From Octopus vulgaris (Eukaryota), in contig OX597821.1 in assembly GCA_951406725.2 (NCBI GenBank), positions 5,332,001 through 5,396,000 on the forward strand: 64,000 bases of DNA, written 5' to 3'. The stretch's first letter is position 1. Each line of letters begins with the position of its first letter. This document shows positions 5,041-7,595 of the stretch, piece by piece. The notes beneath the pieces are model-generated. The model worked only from the letters and a program-made list of their open reading frames with translations. It did not search any database and had not been told where the DNA came from. The position numbers and the translations under genes were made by a program.

Positions 5041-5074
<34 letters not shown>

Positions 5075-5300
5075 TAATCAATATAGGGTGGCAAAAAAAA
5101 ATTTTGTAGAATTCTTTTGCCACCAGCGGCCTAGTGGGAAAAAATTAAATAGTCATAAACCATTTTTAAGTTCAACATCAACAATCAAGGAACGGCCATA
5201 ATAGGCCATTCACCCACTAGAAATAACAGCCAAAAGCTTTAACCGCAAAATAACGTCAATTCCGTAAACCAGGAGAAAATTGAAAAACATTTACCCTGTA

Positions 5301-5407
5301 ATTTCTTAGACGATGCACCGTTTCATCTTCTGTTTAATGGAAAACTAACCTGATTAAATTAAATCAAGCCAATCTACCATAGGCCCTTAGATTCATCAGT
5401 AAGAAAT
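5301..5407 (-). ncRNA. Type I hammerhead ribozyme
   Basis: Reverse complement of 6289-6395. Confidence 0.85.
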
Positions 5408-5790
5408 AGCCAAACCGGAACAGATATTTTTCACGAGGCATTCTCATTGCTACCTCGTCAATATCTGACCTAAAATTTTCAAATCGTCGCACTCGCACCA
5501 AATTTATCGGCAGCAAATAAATATAAGCCGCCGATTCCATTACGGAATTAACCAGAAAATTCATAATTAATCAATATAGGGTGGCAAAAAAATTTTGTAG
5601 AATTCTTTTACCACCAGCGGCCTAGTGGGAAAAATTAAATAGTCATAAACCATTTTTAAGTTCAACATCAACAATCAAGGAACGGCCATAATAGGCCATT
5701 CACCCACTAGAAATAACAGCCAAAAGCTTTAACCGCAAAATAACGTCAATTCCGTAAACCAGGAGAAAATTGAAAAACATTTACCCTGTA

Positions 5791-5897
5791 ATTTCTTAGA
5801 CGATGCACCGTTTCATCTTCTGTTTAATGGAAAACTAACCTGATTAAATTAAATCAAGCCAATCTACCATAGGCCCTTAGATTCATCAGTAAGAAAT
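5791..5897 (-). ncRNA. Type I hammerhead ribozyme
   Basis: Reverse complement of 6289-6395. Confidence 0.85.
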
Positions 5898-6288
5898 AGC
5901 CAAACCGGAACAGATATTTTTCACGAGGCATTCTCATTGCTACCTCGTCAATATCTGACCTAAAATTTTCAAATCGTCGCACTCGCGCCAAATTTATCGG
6001 CAGCAAATAAATATAAGCCGCCGATTCCATTACGGAATTAACCAGAAAATTCATAATTAATCAATATAGGGTGGCAAAAAAAATTTTGTAGAATTCTACA
6101 AAATTTTTTTTGCCACCTATATTGATTAATTATGAATTTTCTGGTTAATTCCGTAATGGAATCGGCGGCTTATATTTATTTGCTGCCGATAAATTTGGCG
6201 CGAGTGCGACGATTTGAAAATTTTAGGTCAGATATTGACGAGGTAGCAATGAGAATGCCTCGTGAAAAATATCTGTTCCGGTTTGGCT

Positions 6289-6395
6289 ATTTCTTACTGA
6301 TGAATCTAAGGGCCTATGGTAGATTGGCTTGATTTAATTTAATCAGGTTAGTTTTCCATTAAACAGAAGATGAAACGGTGCATCGTCTAAGAAAT
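6289..6395 (+). ncRNA. Type I hammerhead ribozyme
   Basis: Stem I ATTTCTTA/TAAGAAAT; core CTGATGA (6297-6303); stem II ATCT/AGAT with a long extension; GAAA (6372-6375); near-palindromic stem III CGGTGCATCG; GUC triplet with predicted cleavage after 6387. Confidence 0.88.
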
Positions 6396-6780
6396 TACAG
6401 GGTAAATGTTTTTCAATTTTCTCCTGGTTTACGGAATTGACGTTATTTTGCGGTTAAAGCTTTTGGCTGTTATTTCTAGTGGGTGAATGGCCTATTATGG
6501 CCGTTCCTTGATTGTTGATGTTGAACTTAAAAATGGTTTATGACTATTTAATTTTTTCCCACTAGGCCGCTGGTGGCAAAAGAATTCTACAAAATTTTTT
6601 TTGCCACCCTATATTGATTAATTATGAATTTTCTGGTTAATTCCGTAATGGAATCGGCGGCTTATATTTATTTGCTGCCGATAAATTTGGCGCGAGTGCG
6701 ACGATTTGAAAATTTTAGGTCAGATATTGACGAGGTAGCAATGAGAATGCCTCGTGAAAAATATCTGTTCCGGTTTGGCT

Positions 6781-6887
6781 ATTTCTTACTGATGAATCTA
6801 AGGGCCTATGGTAGATTGGCTTGATTTAATTTAATCAGGTTAGTTTTCCATTAAACAGAAGATGAAACGGTGCATCGTCTAAGAAAT
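6781..6887 (+). ncRNA. Type I hammerhead ribozyme
   Basis: Same sequence as 6289-6395. Confidence 0.88.
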
Positions 6888-7271
6888 TACAGGGTAAATG
6901 TTTTTCAATTTTCTCCTGGTTTACGGAATTGACGTTATTTTGCGGTTAAAGCTTTTGGCTGTTATTTCTAGTGGGTGAATGGCCTATTATGGCCGTTCCT
7001 TGATTGTTGATGTTGAACTTAAAAATGGTTTATGACTATTTAATTTTTCCCACTAGGCCGCTGGTGGCAAAAGAATTCTACAAAATTTTTTTTGCCACCC
7101 TATATTGATTAATTATGAATTTTCTGGTTAATTCCGTAATGGAATCGGCGGCTTATATTTATTTGCTGCCGATAAATTTGGCGCGAGTGCGACGATTTGA
7201 AAATTTTAGGTCAGATATTGACGAGGTAGCAATGAGAATGCCTCGTGAAAAATATCTGTTCCGGTTTGGCT

Positions 7272-7378
7272 ATTTCTTACTGATGAATCTAAGGGCCTAT
7301 GGTAGATTGGCTTGATTTAATTTAATCAGATTAGTTTTCCATTAAACAGAAGATGAAACGGTGCATCGTCTAAGAAAT
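7272..7378 (+). ncRNA. Type I hammerhead ribozyme
   Basis: Same core; one G>A change in the stem II extension at ~7330. Confidence 0.85.
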
Positions 7379-7498
7379 TACAGGGTAAATGTTTTTCAAT
7401 TTTCTCCTGGTTTACGGAATTGACGTTATTTTGCGGTTAAAGCTTTTGGCTGTTATTTCTAGTGGGTGAATGGCCTATTATGGCCGTTCCTTGATTGT

Positions 7499-7595
<97 letters not shown>

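Follow-up and report, generated by a model that had tools for sequence, protein, structure and literature searches.

Head-to-head insertions of a non-coding hammerhead retrozyme in Octopus vulgaris bear the footprint of PLE insertions

Introduction

Insertions of Penelope-like elements (PLEs) carry a recognizable set of hallmarks. In the available parts of Craig (2021, PMC8557442), these are a partial tandem, an adjacent inverted and 5′-truncated copy, a tail of 30-40 bp that is often present on one side only, and a bias towards (TA)n, and the formation of the tandem and inverted structures is named as an open mechanistic task. The same hallmarks are repeated in the sections available of a curation guide (PMC8969392). 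Head-to-head inversions of PLEs with palindromes at the junction were taken as self-priming in the accessible text of Arkhipova (2013, PMC3846280), which also shows mobilization in trans by pLTR sequences alone. The biochemistry of one PLE, the Poseidon element PAc of Anolis carolinensis, is described in the portions available of Frangieh (2024, PMC11167929): the PAc protein cuts and extends both strands of its target, prefers AT-rich DNA, starts reverse transcription at two positions inside the RNA, which bound the tail, and takes mostly uncleaved RNA as its template, and in vitro the choice of the start site shows no difference between the strands.

Retrozymes are non-coding elements that have been linked to PLEs. 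In the consulted parts of Cervera and de la Pena (2020, PMC7229834), retrozymes are regarded as PLE derivatives and tandem cDNA is proposed to be made by PLE reverse transcriptases on circRNA templates, and the available sections of Li, Clavereau and Pollet (2026, bioRxiv 10.64898/2026.07.22.740005) tie animal retrozymes to PLE pLTRs. In the same parts of these two sources, the case that PLEs mobilize animal retrozymes is so far built on co-occurrence and on phylogenetic grounds. Our literature search, to which most subscription journals were external, returned no paper that combines retrozymes with a head-to-head arrangement and, as far as the listed entries show, no paper on PLE twin priming.

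In L1 twin priming, two primers from the two target strands are used, the sense strands point outward, and the inner junction shows microhomology. The 3′ poly(A) end of the RNA receives the first primer, and each arm derives from a separate part of this single RNA, without overlap. Here, we describe two insertions of a non-coding hammerhead element in a window of the Octopus vulgaris genome (OX597821.1; the whole stretch of 64,000 nt that was analysed), which is 35% GC, microsatellite-dense and free of N, and compare their anatomy with these systems.

Results and Discussion

Locus 1 (5070-7502) is made wholly of a 491/492-nt non-coding monomer, arranged as two opposed arms that meet head-to-head. 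Remnants of the target flank it on both sides, (TA)n on the left (5050-5069) and (AT)n on the right (7503-7686). The left arm (5070-6093, minus strand) is 1024 nt long, equal to 2.08 monomers, with its ribozyme sense running leftward and its outer end at a site that we call B. The right arm (6094-7502, plus strand) is 1409 nt long, equal to 2.87 monomers, and runs rightward to an outer end at a second site, A. The 107 nt between the B and A sites (5070-5176, minus strand) form a tail that is terminal on the left side only, the right arm ending without it at monomer coordinate 108. Both arms stop inside at the same place, one of the monomer's own 8-bp palindromes (6090-6097), and the junction is a perfect mirror over 24 bp per side without a spacer. 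The GAATTC at 6091-6096, which had been read as the junction itself in an earlier note on this DNA, is the centre of this palindrome; the monomer holds three such 8-bp words in four places. Among the units of locus 1 we counted 3 substitutions in total, each private to one unit, besides differences in homopolymer length. This low number over about 2430 nt marks locus 1 as very young. Its variants are not mirrored between the left and right arms, and its two flanks are not mirror images of each other (local score 9 over 470 nt).

We scanned both strands of the window with our own hammerhead motif and found six complete type I motifs, all within the element, five in locus 1 and one in locus 2. 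In locus 1 they follow one another along both arms: two on the minus strand, at 5301-5407 (core 5399, predicted cut after 5309) and 5791-5897 (core 5889, predicted cut after 5799), and three on the plus strand, at 6289-6395 (core 6297, predicted cut after 6387), 6781-6887 (core 6789, predicted cut after 6879) and 7272-7378 (core 7280, predicted cut after 7370). The motif of locus 2 lies on the minus strand within 22540-22971 (core 22866, GUA triplet, predicted cut after 22776). These strands agree with the proposal made from the sequence at first sight that the ribozyme-sense strands point outward at both loci. Each motif comprises an 8-bp stem I, a CUGANGA core, a stem II with a structured insert of about 68-70 nt, GAAA, a short near-palindromic stem III and a GUC or GUA triplet; the long stem-II insert and short near-palindromic stem III are seen, for example, in the motif at 6289-6395. 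According to the available part of PMC4209133, hammerheads of animals and PLEs that act as dimers typically have a short helix III of palindromic sequence. A scan of the window against Rfam at the gathering score gave no matches, which the stem-II insert of about 70 nt may explain. At 6298-6372 this insert is 68 nt long and contains a 14-bp hairpin, and contigs of two public runs lack the 48 nt that run from 6339 up to the cut site.

The monomer folds with a z score of -6.4 against shuffled sequences (0 of 100 shuffles as good). No coding capacity was found in the six frames of the repeated monomer, where the longest stop-free stretch is 68 aa, and an ORF with a telomerase-like reverse transcriptase and a GIY-YIG endonuclease is absent from the element. 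It shares with animal non-LTR retrozymes a tandem non-coding monomer that carries one type I hammerhead, a low GC content (36%), strong structure, very many dispersed genomic copies and a small unit whose length falls within the reported 51-972 bp. By these sequence features the element is a non-LTR retrozyme. In contrast to the retrozymes described in the accessible text of PMC7229834 and bioRxiv 10.64898/2026.07.22.740005, which are head-to-tail tandems, the arms of the octopus element stand head-to-head; the word "inverted" has no occurrence in the available part of the former source and one, in a reference title, in that of the latter.

Locus 2 (22540/22544-23152) is 92% identical to locus 1 and lies nested in the internal (TA)n of an insertion of another family (21955-23682), with (TA)n to its left (22435-22543) and (AT)n to its right (23153-23172). 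Its left arm (22540-22971, minus strand) covers monomer coordinates 1 to about 432, about 0.9 unit, with the B end outward and one intact hammerhead. The right arm (22967-23152, plus strand; 186 nt, about 0.4 unit) covers coordinates from about 295 to 108, with the A end outward, and is identical to the left arm at 186 of 186 nt. The suggestion that the inner junctions differ between the loci is correct, and the microhomology at that of locus 2 is 5 nt (22967-22971) instead of 6. The stretch copied by both arms spans monomer coordinates 108-295 in locus 2 and exceeds 2 units in locus 1. More than one unit per arm, as suggested for both loci, was found in locus 1 only. The right arm of locus 2 starts in the loop of the 14-bp hairpin of the stem-II insert, and the inner ends of the loci lie in or beside predicted hairpins generally; we discount these hairpins since the monomer is structured throughout.

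The flanks of the two loci align only at low local scores (25 and 30), in keeping with the earlier note, which saw no shared flanks beyond the microsatellite, and descent of both from one segmental duplication was rejected on these unrelated flanks. Of the locus 2 substitutions that could be mapped, indels and substitutions near the arm ends being left out, 12 of 17 recur among the 40 family variants listed, out of 61, in the public runs. Each locus carries one haplotype on both of its arms, in a very diverse family. From these comparisons, we regard the two loci as independent insertions.

When the monomer is numbered from 5070, both loci start at coordinate 1, the B end, and finish at coordinate 108, the A end, 107 nt apart, and all four outer ends adjoin (TA)n. 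The earlier note had claimed the same two outer breakpoints for both loci, and this claim held. The right ends coincide exactly; the left ends do so with one substitution allowed and otherwise agree within 4 nt, locus 1 having four further element bases at its left start beyond the motif with which it was first thought to begin. With two loci only, the chance of sharing both ends is about 4e-6 under a uniform null, 3e-4 under a null of agreement within 4 nt, and 4e-4 if the ends are restricted to the 50 AT steps of the unit. The tail is on one side in 2 of 2 loci and measures 107 nt. At the outer ends, 2-3 nt of AT are identical between the element and the target. Ribozyme cleavage was considered as the setter of the ends and rejected, with no inner or outer end falling at the cut (coordinate 240).

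At the A end of locus 1 (7468-7502, plus strand) a predicted hairpin is followed by TTGATT-N4-AT, and the same arrangement is present at the B end. Each monomer contains the pattern at these two places and nowhere else, at A and at B, in regions that are mostly unpaired in the predicted fold. TTGATT had been placed directly before the termini; it does precede both ends, with a gap of 5-6 nt, the spacing at the A end of locus 2 being one base shorter. TTGATT-N4-AT is not enriched overall in the window, with 16 occurrences, 12 of them within the element, against 10.8 expected. A general role of TTGATT as a signal of PLEs was rejected, because neither of the other two families in the window has it at its ends. 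The motif is a family-level lead only, because it was found post hoc and is missing from the ends of these two families.

We also looked for the monomer in 24 public runs. It is present in part in 20 of them, in all cases as Logan contigs, and four of the 24 were mapped to the monomer; the contigs are short pieces of the assembly graph, about 70-150 nt in length. The DNA runs gave 5168 (X1), 7038 (X2) and 14145 (X4) contigs on the monomer, with many variants in common. These thousands of contigs per DNA run point to a large dispersed family, of which two loci lie in the 64 kb studied here. At several positions, e.g. 6355, 6441, 6387 and 6538, the letter of locus 1 is the minority in X1, X2 and X4 by summed contig depth, a rough measure. 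The cleavage triplet is GUC in locus 1 (6387) and GUA in locus 2 (22776), both of which fit the hammerhead rule, and by contig depth the GUA form dominates the public runs (68-99% in X1, X2 and X4), indicating that locus 1 belongs to a young minority subfamily. No peak of termini was listed in these short fragments, which speaks neither for nor against fixed ends, and no strand change was seen among the 10 joints listed. Among the 24 of 241 loose ends listed, most reflect a 1-nt deletion or subfamily differences; a group at 6515 in X1 (10 contigs, agreement 0.82) enters TA some 10 nt beyond the A site and is too weak to use. The monomer was also found as contigs in X6, a run guessed to be RNA, and head-to-tail continuity exists in the DNA runs too. 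A joint in X6 that goes back 492 nt was rejected as evidence for a circle, as tandem DNA predicts the same joint. Scans with a 26-nt motif pattern gave no matches in metagenome contigs or in viral contigs.

Two further, unrelated families in the window show the same footprint. The insertion at 21955-23682, in which locus 2 is nested, has inverted arms of 207 bp (22009-22215 and 23476-23682) that are 98% identical, a tail of about 54 nt confined to the left end, and (TA)n on both sides. The other, older insertion (54068-54973) is a head-to-head arrangement of a unit of about 322 nt, with 80-82% identity between copies, about 1.0 unit in the left arm and about 1.8 in the right, a 58-nt tail on the right only, and (TA)n flanks. 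By eye, a hammerhead-like core can be seen near 23521 in the former family, non-canonical at position 9, and one with a palindromic stem III in the latter; the folding scores of these motifs are not significant (z 0.52 and -1.46), and a relaxed hammerhead scan with a loop limit of 60 nt gave no matches. Counting these two with loci 1 and 2, and leaving out inverted pairs formed by copies of abundant interspersed repeats or by microsatellites, we found a tail at one end and none at the other in 4 of 4 such insertions examined, for which p is about 0.06 under independent choice of the ends.

The head-to-head inverted truncated copy in both loci, the palindrome or microhomology at the junction, the one-sided tail and the (TA)n target are all features of insertions of endonuclease-bearing PLEs (Penelope/Poseidon, Neptune, Naiad), with which the octopus element also shares a type I hammerhead with a palindromic stem III. 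The TSD of PLEs is variable and in microsatellites, such as the (TA)n target here, often unreadable. Unlike PLE insertions, the octopus element has no ORF, consists entirely of one 491-nt monomer, reaches more than 2 units in both arms of locus 1, and has a tail of 107 nt instead of 30-40 bp. With PAc it shares two sites downstream of the ribozyme cut that define the tail, an AT-rich target and ends that are not set by cleavage; both target strands are extended by PAc, and by analogy this may hold for the octopus loci. In contrast to PAc, where an AC-rich stem loop is found, the octopus sites are separated by 107 nt and come after a predicted hairpin and UUGAUU, the ends show their short AT identity to the target, and the ORFs scanned gave no protein partner. 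From L1 twin priming come the outward sense strands, the microhomology at the inner junction and the proposed priming from two strands as points of likeness, while the proposed octopus starts are internal and fixed, the arms overlap, and there is no poly(A) end. Since both arms copy the same template stretch, this is not classical L1 twin priming. Taken together, the insertion footprint is one already known for PLEs, and the octopus loci are best filed as a retrozyme bearing the standard PLE footprint.

We propose that the two independent retrozyme insertions into (TA)n were probably made in trans by a PLE protein through double target-primed reverse transcription from two fixed RNA sites. The anatomy, the common A and B ends, the independence of the loci, the single haplotype per locus and the arms crossing up to three ribozyme sites are observed; a PLE protein as the mover, and each enzymatic step, are likely by analogy with the PAc work. 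In this proposal, the PLE protein acting in trans would nick both strands of (TA)n, and one target strand would prime cDNA at site A and the other at site B, fixed internal sites 107 nt apart on the RNA. Each cDNA would then be extended over a variable distance. The arms of locus 1 cross two and three cut sites, indicating that the template was continuous across the cut sites; it may have been a re-ligated circle or an uncleaved multimer, for which we see about equal chances. Finally, pairing over a few complementary nucleotides, provided by the 8-bp palindrome at locus 1 and by the 5-nt microhomology at locus 2, would join the 3′ ends of the two cDNAs, and the outcome would be a head-to-head insertion tailed at one of its two ends. 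The earlier note had inferred two start sites on the RNA, priming from both strands and a circular or multimeric template. These points fit the anatomy and what the available sections of PMC11167929 describe, but they amount to the known PLE footprint and not to a new phenomenon, and they differ from twin priming as known in L1. Counting against our proposal, only two loci of the family were seen whole, the public contigs listed neither a peak of termini nor a change of strand, and the tail measures 107 nt against the printed 30-40 bp. The PAc start sites, with no strand difference in vitro, do not in themselves predict a strict pairing of A with B, and the 4 of 4 insertions with one tailed end have a p of about 0.06 under independent choice. 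No PLE partner was found among the ORFs scanned, and the palindrome at which locus 1 stops is common to both of its arms, as fold-back would predict too.

In such a fold-back, cDNA from a single priming event would hairpin at its 3′ end on the palindrome or microhomology and copy itself, and endonuclease resolution at A or B would set the second end. We consider this unlikely. It stays near the self-priming and EN-resolution ideas of the PLE literature: junction palindromes are taken as self-priming in the accessible text of PMC3846280, and the tail is attributed to EN-mediated resolution in that of PMC8557442. Locus 1 is indeed a spacer-less palindrome centred on the monomer's 8-bp palindrome, and one haplotype runs across both arms, as copying back would leave it. 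The lengths of the arms speak differently. In locus 1 the longer arm is that of A (1409 versus 1024 nt), in locus 2 it is that of B (432 versus 186 nt); the first cDNA being the longer arm, it would have been primed at A in locus 1 and at B in locus 2, so pure fold-back needs each site as both a start and a stop. Copying back in locus 1 would moreover skip two B sites and stop at the third, and the available part of PMC11167929 maps the tail ends to start sites of reverse transcription.

An improbable alternative dispenses with a rolling circle: double priming on two RNAs, template jumping between linear monomers, or short arms that grew later in place by unequal crossing-over. Locus 2 requires no arm longer than one unit, PAc is a predicted dimer in the accessible text of PMC11167929, and local amplification of retrozyme tandems is proposed in the sections available of bioRxiv 10.64898/2026.07.22.740005. 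Against this, one haplotype per locus in so diverse a family would need a single dominant source, the youth of locus 1 leaves little time for separate expansion in both arms, and the unit junctions at the ribozyme cut are scar-free. We give hardly any credence to an assembly or read fold-back artefact at locus 1, or to one segmental duplication behind both loci, for all that locus 1 is a near-perfect 1-kb palindrome and complex PLE insertions are known to trouble assemblies (available part of PMC8557442): a simple mirror artefact was rejected on the unmirrored flanks and variants, older insertions of other families at 80-98% identity have the same geometry, and the inner junctions, the 92% identity and the recurrence of locus 2 substitutions in the family all stand against duplication.

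Returning to double priming from two fixed sites, a more specific form of it can be considered tentatively. One PLE dimer would sit on one circular RNA at the two paralogous hairpin-UUGAUU sites, priming would be strictly paired between A and B, both polymerases would roll by strand displacement, and the ends would then anneal. We think this form possible but rather doubtful. If this reading is true, the loci would be direct genomic evidence for circRNA as a transposition template, and the inverted footprint with a one-sided tail of all PLEs would be explained.

A young, very high-copy non-coding family with the full PLE footprint links retrozymes to PLEs at the level of insertion structure. 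Small new points are the 107-nt tail, the hairpin-UUGAUU before both ends, and the reciprocal arm lengths that disfavour simple fold-back. The family offers many natural experiments and is a tractable test case for the open PLE mechanism.

No PLE ORF was recognized among the 10 ORFs of the window that were scanned against Pfam, which gave a single RVT_1 match (E 6.6e-07 at 49949-50293). This match lies in a broken reverse-transcriptase ORF on the minus strand (49085-50448), which runs through several frames and is split by a (TA)n run, and which we take to be a LINE fragment, not a PLE. Other repeats of the window include an abundant interspersed repeat, presumably derived from a tRNA and SINE-like, that forms tandem and inverted clusters, for example with arms of 328 bp at 88% identity (40569-41897, 8429-8574, 52060-52465, 63091-63306 and others). 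Another interspersed family, whose members are about 400 bp long and contain a microsatellite, has at least 10 copies at 70-87% identity (4058-4490, 28596-29023, 31463-31845, 52825-53229, 55272-55687 and others), and a 146-bp repeat is present in two copies that are 84% identical (45485-45630 and 60375-60520).
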